A stretch of 44,574 bases of DNA, taken from sequence record PX063913.1. The stretch is one strand, 5' to 3'. This DNA comes from a phage. Both the position numbers and the translations under genes were made by a program. This document shows, piece after piece, positions 14,858 through 34,355 of this stretch. How positions within the stretch are numbered: the first letter of the stretch is position 1; the number at the start of each line of letters is the position of its first letter. Under the pieces are notes generated by a model. It searched no databases and was not told the DNA's origin. It saw nothing but the letters and a program-made list of their open reading frames with translations.

Positions 14858-17122
14858 ATGAGCTTAATTAAATTCGCTGTAACACGACCCGCTAAAAAAG
14901 GCGAAAAAGCCAGGGCGGAAAACTTCCAGATGACCACCGATGAATTTTTCGAATTTATCAATGACGCGAAAGAAATCTCATCGGTGCACATCAACAAGAC
15001 CGAGGATAAAGCCGAGTATGCGCGCCGCAAGCGTAAGGCCGACGGCATCGTGGCATATACCAGTGACGGCCTCCGCCGTAAGACCAGTGCGGTTGACCGC
15101 TCGATCCTGTTCTTTGATATTGACCGCACCGACACTCGCACCTTACGCCGCTGCCGCAAAGCGTTCATTGACGCGGGTCTGGAACACGTATTCCACACCA
15201 CTACCGGCGACCGTCACCCGCTTAAAGGCGGCACGCGTTGCGCCCGTTTCCTGGTGCTCACAGACAAACCCGTACCGGCGGAAGACCTGGGCCGCGTGCA
15301 GTACGCGCTGTTAGACCAACTGGGCCTGTCTGATGTGGACTTCGACGACTGCACGAAAGATACAAACCGCCTGATGTACCTACCACACCAGCAGTCTGTC
15401 ATTAAGTGCCACTACGGAAAGCGCGCCAGTGTGCGTCGTCTGCTTCGCCGGGCTGACAAGCTGGGAGTGGAGAAAGAGGAAGTACGCCGCGAGCTTACCC
15501 AGGGCGACGACGCAGTGGCGGACGGGATTCTGGACTGGTGCTTCCAGGCAGGATTCGAGGAGTTATCTTCTGGTCGCGGTTATGAAGTGCCGTGCCCGAA
15601 CGAACATCTGCACAGCGGCGAAGGGTCGACGGCTATCATGGTCAAGGATGGCGAGATCCGTTTCAAGTGTATGCACACCGGCAACGAGTGTTGCTCTGAG
15701 CTAAATAGACACCAGCACCTGGCGCTACGTCTTATCGGGATACCGGACCACCTGAACGTCGAGCCGCACAACATGTCACGCAAGCAAATCGCCGCCATCC
15801 TCCCCGGACTGGACGACGAGGAAGTCGAATCCTTATATGATCACATTGTTGATGCGGTTGGCGACGGCGAAGAATATGGCGTGTGCACCGATGCGGATCT
15901 GGATAACGAGCCGGTCGCACTGTTCAGCAAGCACGACCCGATCATCGAGGGGTTGATTAACTTTAAATCGACCTGGTATATGGCGGGTGAGTCGAATATC
16001 GGTAAGTCTTTCTATGTGCTGGGGCAGATGGGTGCGGTTGCCGCGGGTATTCCGTTTGGCGGTGCGAAGGTCGTCCAGTCTCATTGCTTCTATTTCGACG
16101 CGGAAGGCGGCGAAGCCTCCAACCAGCGCAAAGAAGCATTGCAGATTAAATATGAGCACGACCTCGACAAGCTGCACATTATCGATCTGCAGTCACGCGG
16201 CTGGGATATCACCAGCAAATCAGGCTTGCGCGAAGTTATCAGCTTTATCAACCGCACCGCTAACGGCGAACCGGTTGGCCTGGTGGCGTTCGACTCACTC
16301 AACCAAACTGTTGCGCTGCGGTCCGCCGATGCCAAACCGTTTGACGAGAACAACGCCAGCGATATGGGTGAAGTGGTCAAAGCGCTGAAGACCATTGCGG
16401 AAAATACAGGTGGCAGTGCGGGCGTCATACACCACCCGGCGAAGGGTGCAAACGGCAGCAGATCCCCGCGTGGGTCCGGTGCGCTTCATGGCGCTGTCGA
16501 TTCCGCTTTCTTCCTGGAACAGCCGGACGACAACCAGCCGGGACAACTTAACCTGTACCACGAAAAATCACGTAACGGCATCAAGCAAGCGCCGCGTGGC
16601 TTCGTCCTGCTCAAGTGCAAGGTGGCGGTAGATCTCCGCAAGTCAGAAGCGTTCGCGTCGCACCAGTCCACCAGCACCGGGCCAGACTTCGGCGACGTAG
16701 TTGCCGGTTGGGACGTCAAACCAATTGCATCCACGCCTCGCGACGAGACTCTGTACCTCGTACCGGTCGCCCTGGCACCGTTCGCTATAGAACAGGCGAA
16801 GGCCGCGGGCAAAGCCGCAGTTAAGGAAGAAAACGCCGCTGGTCCGCGCAACGAAAAAGAGAAAGTGCTTTATGCGGCCCTGGAAAAACTGATGGAAGAT
16901 AACCCGAACCATACTGGTTTCAGTAAATCGGCAATCGTCCGCCAGGCGGGACTCGCTAAGGGTGGCACTTCGACGAAGGCAATCGACGATATGGTCGAGC
17001 GCGGCGTGATTGGTTTCTATACAGATCCGCACACCGGGGCCATCTATGGGTCGTCGAATTTAGTCATCAAATCGGATATCCCCATCACGCTTTCGGCGAC
17101 CGATGATGACCTGAAAGATTAA
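14858..17122 (+). CDS. Primase-helicase (AEP-type primase domain fused to P-loop ATPase)
   Basis: N-terminal ILFFDIDRTD and HVFHTTTGDRHP resemble archaeo-eukaryotic primase motifs; central Cys/His cluster; Walker A GESNIGKSF and Walker B LVAFDSLN in the C-terminal half. Confidence 0.75.
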   Translation: MSLIKFAVTRPAKKGEKARAENFQMTTDEFFEFINDAKEISSVHINKTEDKAEYARRKRKADGIVAYTSDGLRRKTSAVDRSILFFDIDRTDTRTLRRCRKAFIDAGLEHVFHTTTGDRHPLKGGTRCARFLVLTDKPVPAEDLGRVQYALLDQLGLSDVDFDDCTKDTNRLMYLPHQQSVIKCHYGKRASVRRLLRRADKLGVEKEEVRRELTQGDDAVADGILDWCFQAGFEELSSGRGYEVPCPNEHLHSGEGSTAIMVKDGEIRFKCMHTGNECCSELNRHQHLALRLIGIPDHLNVEPHNMSRKQIAAILPGLDDEEVESLYDHIVDAVGDGEEYGVCTDADLDNEPVALFSKHDPIIEGLINFKSTWYMAGESNIGKSFYVLGQMGAVAAGIPFGGAKVVQSHCFYFDAEGGEASNQRKEALQIKYEHDLDKLHIIDLQSRGWDITSKSGLREVISFINRTANGEPVGLVAFDSLNQTVALRSADAKPFDENNASDMGEVVKALKTIAENTGGSAGVIHHPAKGANGSRSPRGSGALHGAVDSAFFLEQPDDNQPGQLNLYHEKSRNGIKQAPRGFVLLKCKVAVDLRKSEAFASHQSTSTGPDFGDVVAGWDVKPIASTPRDETLYLVPVALAPFAIEQAKAAGKAAVKEENAAGPRNEKEKVLYAALEKLMEDNPNHTGFSKSAIVRQAGLAKGGTSTKAIDDMVERGVIGFYTDPHTGAIYGSSNLVIKSDIPITLSATDDDLKD

Positions 17123-17216
17123 TTTTTGCGCGCATTGGTTGCCATCTTGAGTGTTTTTAGCTGGTCGCATTGGTTGCCGCGTAGTGTCAATATAATGCAT
17201 AGTTATGCAATAAAAC

Positions 17217-17395
17217 TGCATAAAGTAAGCGGGACAAAAAGCGGGACAAACCGGGGGCGGGACAAAGCGGGACAGCACCCCTGTCCCGCCCCGGATGACG
17301 CGGCCTGGCGAGGAGCGGGACAGGCGGGACAACTCCCAGTCTTTCAGACTAGACGGGGGTCAGCGGCCCCCCTCGTCTGAGACTGCATAAAATCC
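17217..17395. repeat. Iteron-rich non-coding element, copy A
   Basis: TGCATAAA followed by at least six GCGGGACA units (both orientations) and a long imperfect hairpin CAGTCTTTCAGACTAGACGGGGG...CCCCCCTCGTCTGAGACTG; homologous to 34186-34355. Confidence 0.8.
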
Positions 17396-17537
17396 GGGAT
17401 TGCAAAATACACGGCAGCATGTTGCGGATTGCGGTCGTCGCTGAACTAGGCAACCAATGCGAGATGCAGAAAGTGGTGTGGAAAATGCAGTTTGCAGTTA
17501 CAGCAGATAGCGATCAACTTTTTCATGCGCGTGATTA

Positions 17538-17580
17538 ATATTGGTTGCATCCAGCCTGGCACCCTGCTATATTGGTTGCA
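17538..17580 (+). promoter_or_regulatory. Promoter-like region with two direct ATTGGTTGCA motifs
   Basis: ATATTGGTTGCAT ... TATATTGGTTGCA; TTGCAT, 17-nt spacer, TATATT fits a sigma70 promoter 20-50 nt upstream of the gene at 17601. Confidence 0.45.
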
Positions 17581-17600
17581 CACCAACAGGAGGGCGGAAC

Positions 17601-17780
17601 ATGAAAACCGAAATGGTTAATAAGCGCGAAATCAAGATCGGCGATACGGTAGTCCACAACGGGGAGCTTCGCACTGTGTGCAAGCGAGCGTTTAGCATAG
17701 ATGAATTTATGGGCCTGCTACTTTGGGGCGACAGCTATCGTTTAGGGCATAAACTGGTTGAGAGGGTTACGGAACTATGA
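17601..17780 (+). CDS. Hypothetical small protein
   Basis: ATG at 17601 preceded by AGGAGG; 59 aa; the track ORF extends upstream into the promoter. Confidence 0.55.
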   Translation: MKTEMVNKREIKIGDTVVHNGELRTVCKRAFSIDEFMGLLLWGDSYRLGHKLVERVTEL

Positions 17781-18103
17781 AAGCGATTATCTGGAATTAC
17801 GCAATGGCTATGGCGGCGGCACAAGAAGCGGCGGAGTTCGCCGGTGAAGGAGCGGAAGCGGTCGAAAGACTAGCGGCAGCGTGGTCCGTTGTTCGCGTCA
17901 CGCAGCAGGCCATCGCCTGTATGCTTGAGCGCCGCTTCGACACGATGGCGGAGATCCAGCCGTTGGCGAACGCTATCCAGGACTACGCGCTTGCATTTGC
18001 CCGTGAACGCCTGGCGTATCGCTTCGGGATCGGCGAGACGGCAGTGACAAACGTTGCCAGGATTAAAGCCCAGCGGGAGCTATTCGCCAAGCTTGCGAAA
18101 TAA
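17777..18103 (+). CDS. Hypothetical protein
   Basis: 108-aa ORF coupled by ATGA overlap to the upstream gene. Confidence 0.5.
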   Translation: MKAIIWNYAMAMAAAQEAAEFAGEGAEAVERLAAAWSVVRVTQQAIACMLERRFDTMAEIQPLANAIQDYALAFARERLAYRFGIGETAVTNVARIKAQRELFAKLAK

Positions 18104-18112
18104 GAGGCCAAA

Positions 18113-18382
18113 ATGACCCGTAGACGCGCAAAACAGCTTTCGTGGCATATCCCCCTGCATTGCATACGAATATGGGCTAAGAATGCGAATGCGGGGGACT
18201 CTGTGTACTGGTGCTATCGCGACGACGTTAAGCCGTTGACGCAGACTCGCTACTTGCACCAGTTCGCCGCGCAACACGATTTCAGGGTGCGGACTTCCTT
18301 GCAACCAATGGGGATTCGTATTACATTACGCCGGAAGCCCGCCGTTGAGCGGGCAGGCAAACACTGGAGACTGAGAAAATGA
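18113..18382 (+). CDS. Hypothetical protein
   Basis: 89-aa ORF, AAGAGG upstream; C-terminus HWRLRK. Confidence 0.5.
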   Translation: MTRRRAKQLSWHIPLHCIRIWAKNANAGDSVYWCYRDDVKPLTQTRYLHQFAAQHDFRVRTSLQPMGIRITLRRKPAVERAGKHWRLRK

Positions 18383-18723
18383 TTCGAGTAACCGCACGCC
18401 ACGAGCAGTCGGGGTCCACTTATGACCTTATCGACGTTCGCGGTGCGTTCATCATATTCGGACGGGGCGACGACCGCATGGCGCTGCCGATCGGCATGCT
18501 GAGCGCATACGACTATTTCAAGCATAACGTTCGGTGTGGCGACGTGCTGCGCGACAAGCACACTGGCGAACTATGGACCGTGGCGAGTATTTGGGTGAAA
18601 GACAAACGGCAGCACACGCTACTGCTTGCCCGCCCGGATGGCAAACAGCAAACTATTAACACGATTGGCCTGGTGGACTACACCCGCGTAGGCCGTAACG
18701 CAACCTGGAGACTGAGCAAATGA
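18379..18723 (+). CDS. Hypothetical protein (paralog family)
   Basis: 114 aa; shares GDVLRD...W.V...GLV.Y.RVGR with the gene at 18860; ATGA coupling. Confidence 0.5.
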   Translation: MIRVTARHEQSGSTYDLIDVRGAFIIFGRGDDRMALPIGMLSAYDYFKHNVRCGDVLRDKHTGELWTVASIWVKDKRQHTLLLARPDGKQQTINTIGLVDYTRVGRNATWRLSK

Positions 18724-18863
18724 CACCAGCACTAATGGAGGGATTCTCGCAGAAGTTTATTTCTGTTGATGCCTGCCTAGCAGATTATGAGATGGACGGC
18801 ATCGCTACTGTGTGCGATGGCGACACGAAAACTGCCGATGAGATTGAGGAGACAGAACAATGA
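18720..18863 (+). CDS. Small hypothetical protein (not in ORF track)
   Basis: 47-aa ORF with ATGA overlaps at both ends; GGAGA upstream. Confidence 0.4.
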   Translation: MTPALMEGFSQKFISVDACLADYEMDGIATVCDGDTKTADEIEETEQ

Positions 18864-19390
18864 AATTACTATTCCGCCGCAAATCAGACGGCAAAATCCT
18901 TAGACCAATACAGACCCTTGCGGCACACGTCCGCTTACACCACGCCGCGAGTGATCGGGTTTGGTGGGCGAGTAAGGCAAAGCTGTCGGAGAATTACGAT
19001 ATAGTCACGCATGATATCGAGCGCGGCGATGTGCTGCGTGATATTCGCGACGGCAGTATGTGGATCGTCGAGTATGTCGGGCTTCATGGCCTGCGTATGC
19101 AATCCCGCAAGGATGGCGTCGCCGGTATGACTTACTTCGGCCTTGTCAACTACGAACGAGTGGGCCGCAAATACAGCCTTCGTGACCGCCAGCCGCATGA
19201 GCGCGGTGCAGCCTACGACGCAAGCCAGGTGCAAGCGAAGATGGGCAACGCAGTACGCCAAATCGTCAATCGCTTTGATGCCGTGACGAAAGCACAGCGC
19301 CAGGCTGAGGAGTATGGCGTTGGATTCATCCGCGTCGAACCAGACGGCAGCATGAACGCCATCGACCCGCGCTCGGTGATTCTGAAATGA
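18860..19390 (+). CDS. Hypothetical protein (paralog family)
   Basis: 176 aa; GGAGACAGAACA upstream of the ATG; shares a domain with 18379-18723. Confidence 0.5.
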   Translation: MKLLFRRKSDGKILRPIQTLAAHVRLHHAASDRVWWASKAKLSENYDIVTHDIERGDVLRDIRDGSMWIVEYVGLHGLRMQSRKDGVAGMTYFGLVNYERVGRKYSLRDRQPHERGAAYDASQVQAKMGNAVRQIVNRFDAVTKAQRQAEEYGVGFIRVEPDGSMNAIDPRSVILK

Positions 19391-19533
19391 GTGCGGCGAT
19401 CCGTGATATGCTTCAGCACAACCGCTTCGAGATAGGCGGTCGGGTATTTCGCAATTACTTCGTGGCGCGTGCATGGGCGCGCCATATTGGCAAACCGGAA
19501 GGGGCAATTCGATGCTATACGTCTTCGCGGTAG
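19387..19533 (+). CDS. Small hypothetical protein (not in ORF track)
   Basis: 48-aa ORF starting in an ATGA overlap with the upstream stop. Confidence 0.3.
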   Translation: MSAAIRDMLQHNRFEIGGRVFRNYFVARAWARHIGKPEGAIRCYTSSR

Positions 19534-19613
19534 TATGTGGTGGCAGTCTGGCGGCCCTGGTGCTGTTGGCGTCGGTTATTAGTCTGGTTAAATACCTATG
19601 GGGCAGATTATGA
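19512..19613 (+). CDS. Small hydrophobic peptide (not in ORF track)
   Basis: 33-aa ORF MLYVFAVVCGGSLAALVLLASVISLVKYLWGRL with GGAAGGGG upstream; stop overlaps the next start. Confidence 0.3.
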   Translation: MLYVFAVVCGGSLAALVLLASVISLVKYLWGRL

Positions 19614-19897
19614 TTCATGATGTGATTTATTGGTTTGGTATGGCCAGCATGTTATGCCTGGTTACGGGAGTGCTGGGCGCAATATGGGTATTCCTGGTAT
19701 GGCCCGCCGTGGAAGCCGCCAGCATTACCCGCATGACGTTCGAAATATACAAGCGCCGTGGAATCACGGAGCACCCGACCAGGTTGCGCATGTGGTGGCT
19801 GTGGTATCGGGATATGATAGGCGGTCGAACATTCGAAGCCGTCCGATCATCCAGGTGGGAGTGGAAAGGCGTCGGCAAGTGGTCCATTTTCGATTAA
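19610..19897 (+). CDS. Membrane protein
   Basis: Hydrophobic segments; start taken at ATG 19610 (track ORF begins 19598). Confidence 0.45.
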   Translation: MIHDVIYWFGMASMLCLVTGVLGAIWVFLVWPAVEAASITRMTFEIYKRRGITEHPTRLRMWWLWYRDMIGGRTFEAVRSSRWEWKGVGKWSIFD

Positions 19898-19914
19898 TTA
19901 TGCAAGCGTGATAT

Positions 19915-19949
19915 AGTCCCAGTGAGCTAAAACTTACTGGGACTTTTTT
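19915..19949 (+). terminator. Rho-independent terminator
   Basis: Perfect 9-bp stem AGTCCCAGT/ACTGGGACT with 11-nt loop, followed by T6 directly abutting the holin ATG. Confidence 0.6.
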
Positions 19950-20240
19950 ATGGATAAGCTAAACGAGTGGCTATTCGCCCTAGCATGTCTGGCGGGTGGC
20001 TTCGTAGGCGCACGCATTCATGGTGAGGCTACGAAGGGGCCGCTAAACTTCGTTTTGTATGTGGTAGTCGGCTTCCTGTGTGCCATATTTGGCGCACCGG
20101 CTATTGCCGAGTGGGCTGGTTTGTCGGGTGAGCGCACTGTCGCCGGTTTGGGCTTCGTAACCGCAATCTTCTGGATGCCAATCGCCGACCGGATCAGGGA
20201 GACTATTGCGTCGTTCCGACTTCCGGGGGGTGCAAAATGA
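19950..20240 (+). CDS. Holin-like membrane protein
   Basis: 96 aa with three predicted hydrophobic helices, immediately upstream of the endolysin. Confidence 0.55.
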   Translation: MDKLNEWLFALACLAGGFVGARIHGEATKGPLNFVLYVVVGFLCAIFGAPAIAEWAGLSGERTVAGLGFVTAIFWMPIADRIRETIASFRLPGGAK

Positions 20241-20482
20241 TTATCTCCGTCCTGTTGTTTGTTATCATCGGGGCTTCGTCCCTGTTTAACGTGTATGCGC
20301 CGTCCGTCCAGGATGGCATTTTCGGTCGGGTGCTGTATCTGCTAACGGCAATGATCTGTATTATTGGACTGTTGCAAACCGGAGACGTATCTGATACCAC
20401 CTGGACCGCGTTAATCTGGCTGTTTGCATTGCGCACCCTGCGTAATGCTGTTTTGAATGGGGTAAAACATGCGATTCAGTGA
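20237..20482 (+). CDS. Second small membrane protein (holin or antiholin candidate)
   Basis: 81 aa with multiple hydrophobic helices; GGGGGG RBS; overlaps the endolysin start. Confidence 0.45.
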   Translation: MIISVLLFVIIGASSLFNVYAPSVQDGIFGRVLYLLTAMICIIGLLQTGDVSDTTWTALIWLFALRTLRNAVLNGVKHAIQ

Positions 20483-20960
20483 CAACGGTCTAAGATTCAC
20501 GGCAGCATGGGAGGCTTTCAGCCCGGTGCCGTATTTCGCGACCAAGAAAGAGCAGGCCCGCGGCCTGTACACCTGGGGTTATGGTCATACCGGCACTAAT
20601 CCGCCTCGAAGCATTACCCGCGAGGAAGCGCTGGCACTGCTCAAGCGCGATGTGGCGTATGCCGAGGATTGGGTGAACAAATACGCTCATAAGAGCATTA
20701 ACCAGGCGCAATTTGACGCGCTGGTGGACCTGGTAATCAACGCCGGTCCTGGTCCGATCGTACCGGATGACGTCGCGAATGATTTCGATGATGCGGTACG
20801 GTTGGGCGACTGGGCGAAGGTCCGTGCTACGCTGCCGCTGTTCCGCAAGCAAGGCGGGGAAGTGCTCAAGGGTCTGGTGCGCCGTGCGATCGGCAGACAG
20901 GCGTTGTTTGATGGCAAGCAGTGGGACGTTGCCGAGCGAATCGGTCGTAACGCTGCATAA
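20469..20960 (+). CDS. Endolysin, GH24 lysozyme-like
   Basis: FTAAWEAFSPVPYF...GLYTWGYGHTGT matches the phage lysozyme (T4-type muramidase) catalytic region. Confidence 0.75.
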   Translation: MRFSDNGLRFTAAWEAFSPVPYFATKKEQARGLYTWGYGHTGTNPPRSITREEALALLKRDVAYAEDWVNKYAHKSINQAQFDALVDLVINAGPGPIVPDDVANDFDDAVRLGDWAKVRATLPLFRKQGGEVLKGLVRRAIGRQALFDGKQWDVAERIGRNAA

Positions 20961-20976
20961 TACGAGGTGACACAAT

Positions 20977-21144
20977 ATGTTGAAAAGTATTCTTGATCAT
21001 AATGCGGACGCGCTTGCCGCACTGGCTAAAACCGAAGATCCGGGCGCACGCGCTATCATCGCGGACACTATCAGCCACGCTGGGGTCTTTGACGCGAAGC
21101 TGCCAAGCCCGCCACCGCCGGAAGAACCAGGCCCAGCGGCCTAA
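20977..21144 (+). CDS. Small hypothetical protein (not in ORF track)
   Basis: 55-aa ORF with GAGGTGA RBS, proline-rich C-terminus, followed by a terminator. Confidence 0.4.
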   Translation: MLKSILDHNADALAALAKTEDPGARAIIADTISHAGVFDAKLPSPPPPEEPGPAA

Positions 21145-21150
21145 ACACGA

Positions 21151-21176
21151 AGCCCGGTTAATTCCGGGCTTTTTAT
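21151..21176 (+). terminator. Rho-independent terminator
   Basis: AGCCCGG-ttaatt-CCGGGCT followed by TTTT. Confidence 0.65.
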
Positions 21177-21177
21177 T

Positions 21178-21218
21178 GCTTGACTCGCAACCAACATAGG
21201 GGCCATACTGCAACCAAT
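21178..21218 (+). promoter_or_regulatory. Promoter-like region with two TGCAACCAA motifs
   Basis: TTGACT then CGCAACCAAC and TGCAACCAAT upstream of the small ORF at 21239. Confidence 0.4.
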
Positions 21219-34041: not shown

Positions 34042-34152
34042 AGCGGGACAGGCGGGACGTCCCGTTTTGTCCCGCTCCGCTAAAACTGCATATTTACGCA
34101 CCACAATTGCATAAACTAAAAGCGGGACAGGCGGGACGTCCCGTTTTGTCCC
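34042..34152. repeat. Tandem palindromic GCGGGACA elements
   Basis: Two copies of AGCGGGACAGGCGGGACGTCCCGTTTTGTCCC (34042-34073 and 34121-34152), each with the perfect palindrome GGGACGTCCC, separated by an AT-rich spacer with TGCATA motifs. Confidence 0.8.
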
Positions 34153-34185
34153 ACCCCCAAAATGTGAATGTCTATTCAGTTTTAG

Positions 34186-34355
34186 TGCATAAACTAAGCG
34201 GGACAAAAAGCGGGACAGAATGAGGCGGGACAAAGCGGGACAGCACCCCGTCCCCGCCAGTGCTGCCGCGGGTTTTAGCCGATCGGGACAGGCGGGACAA
34301 AGCCCAGTCTTTCAGACTAGACGGGGGTCAATGGCCCCCCTCGTCTGAGACTGAA
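34186..34355. repeat. Iteron-rich non-coding element, copy B
   Basis: About 85 percent identical to 17217-17395: TGCATAAAC, GCGGGACA units, then the same imperfect hairpin with a different loop. Confidence 0.8.

Follow-up and report, generated by a model that had tools for sequence, protein, structure and literature searches.

A rare gene and a reiterated gene-junction sequence in a variable slot of a Dhillonvirus-like phage genome

INTRODUCTION

In lambdoid phages, conserved boundary or linker sequences lie at gene junctions, as set out in the modular theory of phage evolution. In T4-type phages, the genes of the hyperplastic regions undergo modular shuffling mediated by PeSL (Arbiol et al. 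2010, PMC2839356; follow-up PMC4122927), an intergenic element comprising a sigma-70-like early promoter and a stem-loop terminator (PMC2839356). Here we describe a short motif, the junction J, in the phage genome PX063913.1 (the window; the whole stretch of 44,574 nucleotides (nt) that was analysed). By megablast, this phage falls in the Dhillonvirus group and resembles the coliphages HK578, JL1 and Henu5_1. J is repeated within a run of four small + strand open reading frames (ORFs), p89, p114, p47 and p176, which are chained through ATGA stop/start overlaps; p89 and p176 correspond to the proteins annotated as gp51 and gp52 in relatives. We argue that p114 is a rare cassette, probably placed by recombination at a reiterated Shine-Dalgarno (SD)/ATGA junction in a hyperplastic slot of Dhillonvirus genomes.

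Accessory ORFan genes of virulent phages are the source of many anti-defence and host-takeover functions, and their gain and loss has been documented in few phage groups.

RESULTS

One junction sequence ends several unrelated genes

The 19-mer J (CTGGAGACTGAGMAAATGA) has exactly two occurrences in the window, J1 at the end of the p89 gene and J2 at the end of the p114 gene, 341 bp apart (coordinates of all features are collected in Table 1). With three mismatches allowed, there were no matches to it in 100 dinucleotide shuffles. The core of the motif (GGAGACWGARCA) has three copies in the 44.6 kb, all at slot junctions, against 0.38 expected. A preliminary description of this DNA had placed the recurrence at 18360–18382 and 18700–18723; the recurrence is real, but these boundaries are a few bases too generous on the 5' side. 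A third, degenerate copy before the p176 gene, J' (GGAGACAGAACAATGA), had been missed.

The general form of J is GGAGACTGAGCAA followed by ATGA, 13–19 nt in length, and contains the SD motif GGAG and a 9-nt spacer, ACTGAGCAA. The distance from GGAG to the ATG is 9 nt at 18379 and 18720 and 8 nt at 18860, with an ATGA overlap in each case. All three junctions therefore have the arrangement expected where translation is coupled, i.e. a stop/start overlap with an SD 5–10 nt upstream, inside the preceding gene. This bears out the earlier proposal that the junction gives the upstream proteins their WRL(R/S)K tails whilst providing the next gene with both a ribosome-binding site (GGAG 9 nt before ATG) and its ATGA overlap. 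From this arrangement we infer, with moderate confidence, that J couples translation of the downstream gene to that of the gene before it.

Five unrelated upstream coding sequences (p89, p114, p50b, p47 and an extended p47, p47ext) end in GGAGAC(T/A)GA(G/A)CA(A)ATGA, and their likeness ceases immediately 5' of GGAG. In p89, p114 and p50b, J is read as TGG/CGG AGA CTG AGC AAA TGA, giving (W/R)RLSK*. In p47, where the motif is one base shorter, it is read as GAG GAG ACT GAG CAA TGA, giving EETEQ*. Since the same nucleotides are used in two reading frames, the conservation is at the level of DNA or RNA and not of protein. A reading of the repeated junction as a duplicated flank does not hold: J is instead a common 3' boundary of cassettes, including those of unrelated genes read in another frame. 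At the other candidate ATGA overlaps of the genome, the upstream sequence is unrelated to J, and many have a weak SD or none.

Each of 11 IMG/VR Dhillonvirus contigs contains J a single time, and J was found in no other kind of contig, which argues that it is specific to this locus and is not the end of a dispersed element; we accordingly rejected the idea that J is a dispersed mobile-element end. In a scan of 16900–21200, none of the J copies coincided with a promoter-like site or with a + strand terminator-like site; the only terminator-like match nearby is on the − strand inside p114 (18625–18609). Read by eye, J lacks dyad or inverted-repeat symmetry.

p114 is an occasional occupant of a variable slot

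A megablast search with 17500–20500 returned 158 phage records, nearly all from Escherichia phages of the genus Dhillonvirus, at 80–95% identity. The Dhillonvirus matches include HK578, JL1, SSL-2009a, SECphi4, Henu5_1 and the BASEL phages TheodorHerzl and Oekolampad. A presence/absence comparison across related phages, which had been suggested in the preliminary description, gave a clear pattern. About 148 relatives match 18113–19390 as two pieces with 75% coverage, and what they lack is exactly the 341 bp between J1 and J2. In nucleotide alignments, SD276 and TheodorHerzl each show only one J, together with a clean gap of 341 bp, equivalent to the p114 body plus one J. p114 is absent from ~95% of relatives and is carried by about 10 genomes. 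A tblastn search found it at full length in seven records (WFI, WF5505, 101114B2, 22664B1, CHD2B1 and RefSeq duplicates), and amongst 5.8 billion proteins there were 5 p114 clusters against 438 p176 clusters.

We also surveyed the slot between gp51 and gp52 in 24 related loci, out of roughly 160 relatives, using phage records, IMG/VR and Logan/ENA contigs. At least eight cassette arrangements were present. The slot is empty in two loci (L007 and L013), where a single J is already present. Other loci have one cassette (p47 only, p114 only or p50b only), p50b with p47 (Oekolampad), p63 with p44 (EK99P-1), p50b with p62 and p44, or extended p47 and fusion forms of 78 and 84 amino acids (aa). The combination of p114 with p47 was seen in this window only. 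In WFI the order is p89-J-p114-J-gp52 with p47 absent, and in all other intact carriers p114 directly precedes gp52. It does so next to at least four different gp52 alleles and in differing left-flank backgrounds. SECphi4 (L026, MT331608.1 15795–16770) has the common order p89-p50(p47 type)-gp52 and no p114; in the literature on SECphi4 escape mutants, the single-stranded DNA (ssDNA)-binding protein SSB, DNA polymerase and a 56-aa protein are implicated, with nothing pointing to the slot.

The region had been described as accessory. This is true of p114 and of the slot as a whole, where many relatives have p47 and some do not, but not of the genes on either side: homologues of p89 and p176 were found in 24/24 analysable loci.

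The window is a mosaic with one edge at J

Different parts of the slot have different closest relatives. The nucleotide identity of p114 is highest to L024 and L004 (95–97%), and that of p47 is highest to SD276, Henu5_1 and L014 (97–98%). For the 5' part of p176, identity is 93% to SD276 and 70% to L024. Of the sites that distinguish Henu5_1 from L024, those in 17950–18271 (27 sites) are Henu5_1-like in the window, and 6/7 of those in 18284–18346 are L024-like. On the other side, the megablast matches from phages with p47 only start at 18702, the 5' edge of J2. These patterns point to a patch of ~430 bp (about 18272–18704), probably acquired from a p114-carrying lineage by a Henu5_1-like backbone, with its right edge inside J. 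The donors have gp52 and not p47 to the right of p114, and so the right-hand crossover must have used J, the sole sequence shared there. Here, and at the edges of the slot indels, the breakpoints fall at J within a few bases.

The junction from p114 to p47 appears to be peculiar to this phage. No phage record covers at least 80% of 18560–18860, and the junction was not found in IMG/VR or JGI metagenomes. As a control, the junction from p114 to gp52 was recovered.

Other rearrangements were seen at the locus. A protein of 190 aa (P0125), encoded at 828–1400 of a Logan contig from ERR13244735 (L023), is a fusion of p114 to gp52. Apart from three deletions, each flanked by short direct repeats, the contig matches WFI (L002 859–1832) at 100% identity. 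The largest deletion, of 447 nt, runs from one paralogous GGCGATGTGCTGCG segment to the other and thereby creates the p114-gp52 fusion; the second, of 45 nt, has ATGACGT as its repeat, and the third is of 9 nt. As a single metagenomic contig, L023 may be a real deletion variant or an assembly artefact; if real, it would be an independent sign of short-repeat recombination at this locus. Two database proteins (P0134 and P0140) join the gp52 N-terminus to the C-terminal half of the 99-aa product of 19598–19897 (...GITEHPTRLRMWWLWY...GKWSIFD), which suggests larger deletions across the block in some genomes.

p114 is an old, shortened relative of gp52

The preliminary description had proposed that the proteins of 18379–18723 and 18860–19390 share a domain. 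The similarity is significant in both pairwise and profile alignment. By BLASTP, p114 and p176 are 37% identical over 68 residues (E = 4e-10). By profile–profile comparison (hhalign), p114 residues 42–110 align with p176 residues 44–107 with a probability of 95% (E = 2.8e-8), a shared domain of ~65 residues. p176 is a full-length member of phrog_10243 (E = 7.1e-95, residues 1–176 on profile positions 1–184). p114 matches this profile at positions 44–107 only (E = 1.4e-10), is about 30–37% identical to the gp52 family, and fails as a full-length member because the C-terminal half of the family is absent. To judge from these alignments, p114 is a truncated paralogue of gp52 and not an orthologue. 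The DNA of the shared barrel is only ~55–60% identical in an alignment read by eye, and the paralogy is therefore old.

Structure prediction extends the comparison. The AlphaFold model of p114 (mean predicted confidence, pLDDT, 85.5; predicted template modelling score 0.72), made from an alignment containing both the p114 and gp52 families, consists of two tandem SH3/Tudor-like barrels (residues 4–49 and 55–106) and nothing more. The AlphaFold2 model of p176 (pLDDT 72 overall, 82–89 over residues 1–70) has two tandem beta-beta-beta-beta-short helix-beta modules (3–51 and 57–103), followed by a disordered linker (105–130), a long helix (121–152) and a small C-terminal beta unit (phrog_27442). 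In the models, p114 is colinear with the first ~105 residues of p176 and lacks the linker, helix and C-terminal unit; MAFFT also aligned the two proteins colinearly, barrel 1 included. For barrel 1, homology at the sequence level is nevertheless unsupported: the profile–profile match covers residues 42–110 only, and it is the predicted structures that carry the comparison further. The most fitting description of p114 is a gp52 paralogue that lacks the C-terminal part and whose reading frame now stops in J.

The modelled barrels have the hallmarks of the SH3/Tudor-like fold: five strands, of which the fourth and fifth are separated by a short helix, and superposition on known members. Fold searches gave generic single-barrel matches only, and the tandem arrangement matched nothing solved. 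The top fold match of p114 is an uncharacterised protein of Staphylococcus phage 37. In BFVD, the sole significant match is the gp52 homologue of phage PTXU06, over the full length of p114 (template modelling score 0.70). An exhaustive hidden Markov model search of 1.84 billion representatives gave 24 hits, mostly fragments or fusions of the family, with no match outside Dhillonvirus-like phages, and the two-barrel family is, as far as these searches reach, limited to that group.

Amongst the p114 alleles (six in nine genomes) there are 229 synonymous and 137 nonsynonymous codon differences, compared with 24% synonymous expected at random. This excess indicates a functional gene under moderate purifying selection.

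Two further proteins were considered as barrel paralogues and dropped: p50b (50 aa, MIRVKS...RRLSK) and the 59-aa protein encoded at 17601–17777 (IKIGDTVVHNGELRTV), as the hhalign scores were not significant (E = 0.11 and 0.2 for the two candidates). Within the gp52 family, the linker (~residues 105–135) is indel-rich and lengths vary from 161 to 214 aa. Barrel 1 occurs as sharply different alleles, with 50–60% nucleotide identity in 18921–19000, and barrel 2 and the C-terminus are at least 90% conserved. The C-terminal unit, phrog_27442, stands alone in another phage protein, P0146.

Neighbouring genes and annotations

The run of small + strand ORFs is flanked by a primase-helicase gene (14858–17122) and by holin and lysozyme genes (19950–20960). 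The replication module on the − strand encodes a family-A DNA polymerase, an SNF2 helicase, an Enc34-type ssDNA-binding protein, a DUF2800 PD-(D/E)XK nuclease and a Dam methylase. A terminator is annotated in phages WFI and WF5505 at the position equivalent to the hairpin at 19915–19944.

Table 1. Positions of the slot genes, junctions and associated features in the window
Feature	Position	Strand	Remarks
p89 gene ('gp51', phrog_12533)	18113–18382	+	89 aa, ends HWRLRK; last 19 nt are J1
p114 gene	18379–18723	+	114 aa, ends TWRLSK; rare accessory cassette
p47 gene (phrog_15977)	18720–18863	+	47 aa, small cassette protein
p176 gene ('gp52', phrog_10243)	18860–19390	+	176 aa, conserved across the genus
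J1, CTGGAGACTGAGAAAATGA	18364–18382	+	SD GGAG, 9-nt spacer, ATGA overlap; encodes the p89 tail WRLRK* and the p114 start codon
J2, CTGGAGACTGAGCAAATGA	18705–18723	+	Encodes the p114 tail WRLSK* and the p47 start codon; probable right-hand crossover point
J', GGAGACAGAACAATGA	18848–18863	+	Variant of J, one base shorter; frame EETEQ*; carries the p176 start codon
Barrel 2 DNA of p114 (residues 42–110)	18502–18708	+	Significantly homologous to p176 (GDVLRD...W.V...GLV.Y.RVGR)
Barrel 2 DNA of p176 (residues 44–107)	18989–19180	+	Homologous to p114 barrel 2
Probable recombinant patch (p89 3' end, J1 and p114 body)	18272–18704	+	L024/L004-like; Henu5_1-like sequence on either side
Intrinsic-terminator-like hairpin, strong	19915–19944	+	12-bp stem and T run; closes the small-gene block before holin/lysozyme
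ATTGGTTGC sites	17134, 17169, 17540, 17571, 2972, 14321	+	
ATTGGTTGC sites	17450, 4870, 4887, 7829, 18301, 21210, 28446, 44550	−	

Sequence searches of Pfam, NCBIfam, PHROGs and the PDB gave no informative match to function for p89, p114, p47 or p176. The preliminary description pointed to regions of this kind as frequent sites of anti-defence or host-takeover genes; such a role here would be conjectural. p89, p50b, p114 and p176 are basic (isoelectric point (pI) 9.8–11.5, with p89 at 11.5), and p47 is acidic (pI 4.1). The N-terminus of p89 (MTRRRAKQL...YWCYRDD) weakly resembles the lambda integrase arm DNA-binding domain PF09003, at a score below threshold (E = 0.15; 12.6 bits, where 22 are required). 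p89 has no PDB sequence match and no catalytic domain; going by its composition and this resemblance, it may be a small DNA-binding protein.

Three public records carry annotation that looks doubtful in this block (OQ221563.1, PQ658967.1 and PQ295795.1). The gp52 homologue of UDS3lw is annotated as an 'HNH endonuclease', although the homologous p176 has no Pfam match. In Lzu_P1, a slot protein of 78 aa bears the label 'DNA polymerase I', which looks doubtful, as does the name of 'Acinetobacter phage NJ01', a typical Dhillonvirus ~91% identical to this coliphage.

Other repeats in the genome

Two other repeats are enriched in the window. The octamer GCGGGACA has 18 copies against 2.3 expected and forms two dense clusters: one of seven copies, one of them inverted, in the intergenic region after the primase-helicase gene (17229–17331), and one of eight copies (34043–34299). 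These look like iterons or arrays of protein-binding sites, with a possible role at an origin or in regulation. The second repeat, ATTGGTTGC, has 14 copies against 0.45 expected, many of them in pairs spaced by 17–35 nt and several between ORFs. One such pair (17540/17571) shortly precedes the first gene of the small-gene block and overlaps what may be a promoter (TTGCAT-17 nt-TATATT, 17545–17573), which was read by eye and not flagged by the promoter scan. ATTGGTTGC is a candidate phage-specific promoter or operator.

DISCUSSION

A model for cassette exchange at J

We suggest that the slot between gp51 and gp52 holds a variable string of small, putatively coupled cassettes, in which J at the end of each cassette would supply the SD and the stop/start overlap for the gene that follows. 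Copies of J at non-allelic positions could then support homologous recombination, or a microhomology/annealing-type process, that adds, removes, swaps or permutes whole cassettes, whether inside a single genome or between relatives that infect together. Such an exchange would leave the downstream gene correctly placed for translation, and the survivors would be those recombinants in which coupling is intact. In the present case, the p114 cassette of a p114-carrying lineage would have been joined via J to the p47-gp52 array of a Henu5_1-like backbone. The outcome would be the otherwise unseen order p89-J-p114-J-p47-J'-p176, with the J copies as direct repeats around the gained gene. p114 itself is an old gp52 paralogue that has kept both predicted barrels. 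The phage PD-(D/E)XK nuclease (DUF2800) and the Enc34-type ssDNA-binding protein could aid recombination. That recombination at J was the actual mechanism is something we hold with moderate confidence.

Several points weigh against this scheme. The parents, like the exchange at J itself, are deduced from extant relatives, with the detailed analysis covering 24 of roughly 160 of these. A fuller ancestral array that lost cassettes repeatedly would leave an identical pattern, though this too would be recombination from J to J. The boundary between p63 and p44 has another junction, GGAGGCCGAGAAATG. The A/C variant in J does not fit a simple donor/recipient model either: the window has A in the upstream copy and C in the downstream copy, and most carriers have the reverse. 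As regards p114, the significant sequence similarity is in barrel 2 only, and the colinearity of barrel 1 comes from models whose alignment included both families. Finally, 19 bp is short for efficient homologous recombination, and J might therefore mark only where recombinants are viable, through selection, and not where exchange is favoured. Separately, we rejected the A/C variant as a marker of donor and recipient, because a p114-only genome (P0123/L025) has the C variant downstream of p114.

Taken to its limit, the selection argument would have J kept purely as a signal for translation initiation and coupling, with illegitimate recombination occurring anywhere and selection retaining the recombinants that restore the signal. 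The GGAG at a workable 9-nt spacing and the ATGA overlap are consistent with this, and recombinants that break coupling are probably unfit. We nonetheless consider it unlikely that J has had no part in recombination. The other candidate ATGA overlaps of the genome differ upstream, many with a weak SD or none, and so no such strict requirement exists; the identity spans the 9-nt spacer, which SD function does not constrain, in two reading frames; and the indel edges and the mosaic breakpoint match J within a few bases. The preliminary description favoured local duplication. It was right that p114 and p176 are paralogues, lying less than 500 bp apart on one strand with a shared domain, and the 341-bp unit between direct repeats would also suit a recent tandem event in which gp52 and its upstream junction were copied in place, the copy decayed to p114 and the J copies were left as duplicated flanks. 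Such an event is, however, improbable. At 37% protein identity and ~55–60% DNA identity across the shared barrel (by eye), the two are far more diverged than gp52 orthologues across the genus; p114 is missing from ~95% of relatives and sits beside at least four gp52 alleles with varied left flanks; unrelated cassettes (p50b and p47) in phages without p114 end in the same J; and the p114 of the window is 95–97% identical to that of other lineages whilst the flanks are not.

We find it hardly credible that p114 is the cargo of a small mobile element moving by homing, transposition or site-specific integration, with the J copies as a target-site duplication or attachment sites. The unit encodes p114 alone, in which Pfam, PHROGs and NCBIfam showed no signature of a nuclease, transposase or integrase, and J, which occurs once per genome at one locus in Dhillonviruses and is not dispersed, already exists as a single copy in the cassette-free genomes (L007 and L013) and also bounds unrelated cassettes. 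These features outweigh the discrete 341-bp unit, its 19-bp direct repeats and patchy distribution, as well as the sub-threshold PF09003 resemblance of the neighbouring p89 (E = 0.15), a protein without a catalytic domain or PDB match; J also lacks inverted-repeat symmetry (by eye). A bolder form of our own proposal would make J a dedicated site for cassette exchange or co-regulation, recognised as DNA or RNA by a phage factor such as the very basic p89, the gene of which comes before the array in every case; the array would be a virulent-phage analogue of an integron that works via translational coupling. We regard this as very improbable; if true, small ORFan genes would be picked up, cut out as circles and expressed on a plug-and-play basis. 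Placement of p114 by recombination at the reiterated junction is the reading that we prefer and consider likely.

Implications

The locus is a compact and testable example in which a translational junction of 13–19 nt, and not a promoter or terminator, lies at the gene boundaries of a slot, and in which the make-up of one recombinant can be retraced nearly base by base. Dhillonviruses such as SECphi4 and BASEL Bas14-18 are already laboratory models, making crosses and deletion assays feasible, and the J-bounded slot could be a natural landing pad for engineered genes. The two-barrel gp52/p114 family is genus-wide and has natural truncated and fused variants that are useful for mapping function. 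It is a tentative and rather doubtful idea that these basic two-barrel proteins bind a host or phage macromolecule, e.g. nucleic acid or RNA polymerase; with similarly low confidence, p114 would supply a variant or competing specificity without the C-terminal parts of gp52.

Comparison with known systems

p176 is a full member of the Dhillonvirus gp52 family, whose representatives in HK578, JL1, SECphi4 and BASEL Bas14-18 are annotated as 'hypothetical protein'. p114 has the central barrel and the predicted two-barrel N-terminus in common with this family and ends in a tail encoded by J. Compared with small beta-barrels of other proteins (the C-terminal Tudor domain of UvrD/PcrA, CarD, Mfd and KOW), identity is only 6–17% with no Pfam match, and the fold is extremely common; we therefore do not place these proteins in the RNA-polymerase-binding Tudor family of the UvrD/PcrA/CarD/Mfd type.

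The locus does not resemble an integron. Within the proteins scanned there is no adjacent tyrosine or serine recombinase, and J does not form imperfect inverted-repeat sites. The scan for recombinase domains took in the block proteins and ten − strand ORFs and found none; the remaining + strand genes lay outside it. Nor does the locus resemble a transposon or homing element with a target-site duplication, as the insert is p114 only and J pre-exists in cassette-free genomes.

Mosaicism at short conserved boundary sequences is already established, and our finding refines this view and does not overturn it; what we describe is fairly ordinary phage mosaicism. The lambdoid boundaries are like J in that mosaic joints fall at gene borders and short shared non-allelic sequences serve as crossover points. 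They lie between functional modules of temperate phages, whereas J bounds a single tiny gene in a virulent phage, in up to three tandem copies.

The closest described analogue is PeSL shuffling in the T4-type phages. PeSL, like J, is a short conserved regulatory motif that recurs where small and mostly ORFan, non-essential genes meet; in both cases, close relatives differ by insertions, deletions or replacements that end at the motif, and recombination between neighbouring copies has been proposed as the mechanism. J shares with PeSL its reiteration at the borders of variable genes and the indels that it bounds between relatives. The two differ in what the motif appears to encode and where it is found: PeSL combines a promoter with a terminator, whereas J, by its sequence, would be a much shorter SD and ATGA overlap of 13–19 nt, placed inside the 3' coding end of the preceding gene within a single operon, and is confined to one slot of Dhillonvirus siphophages.

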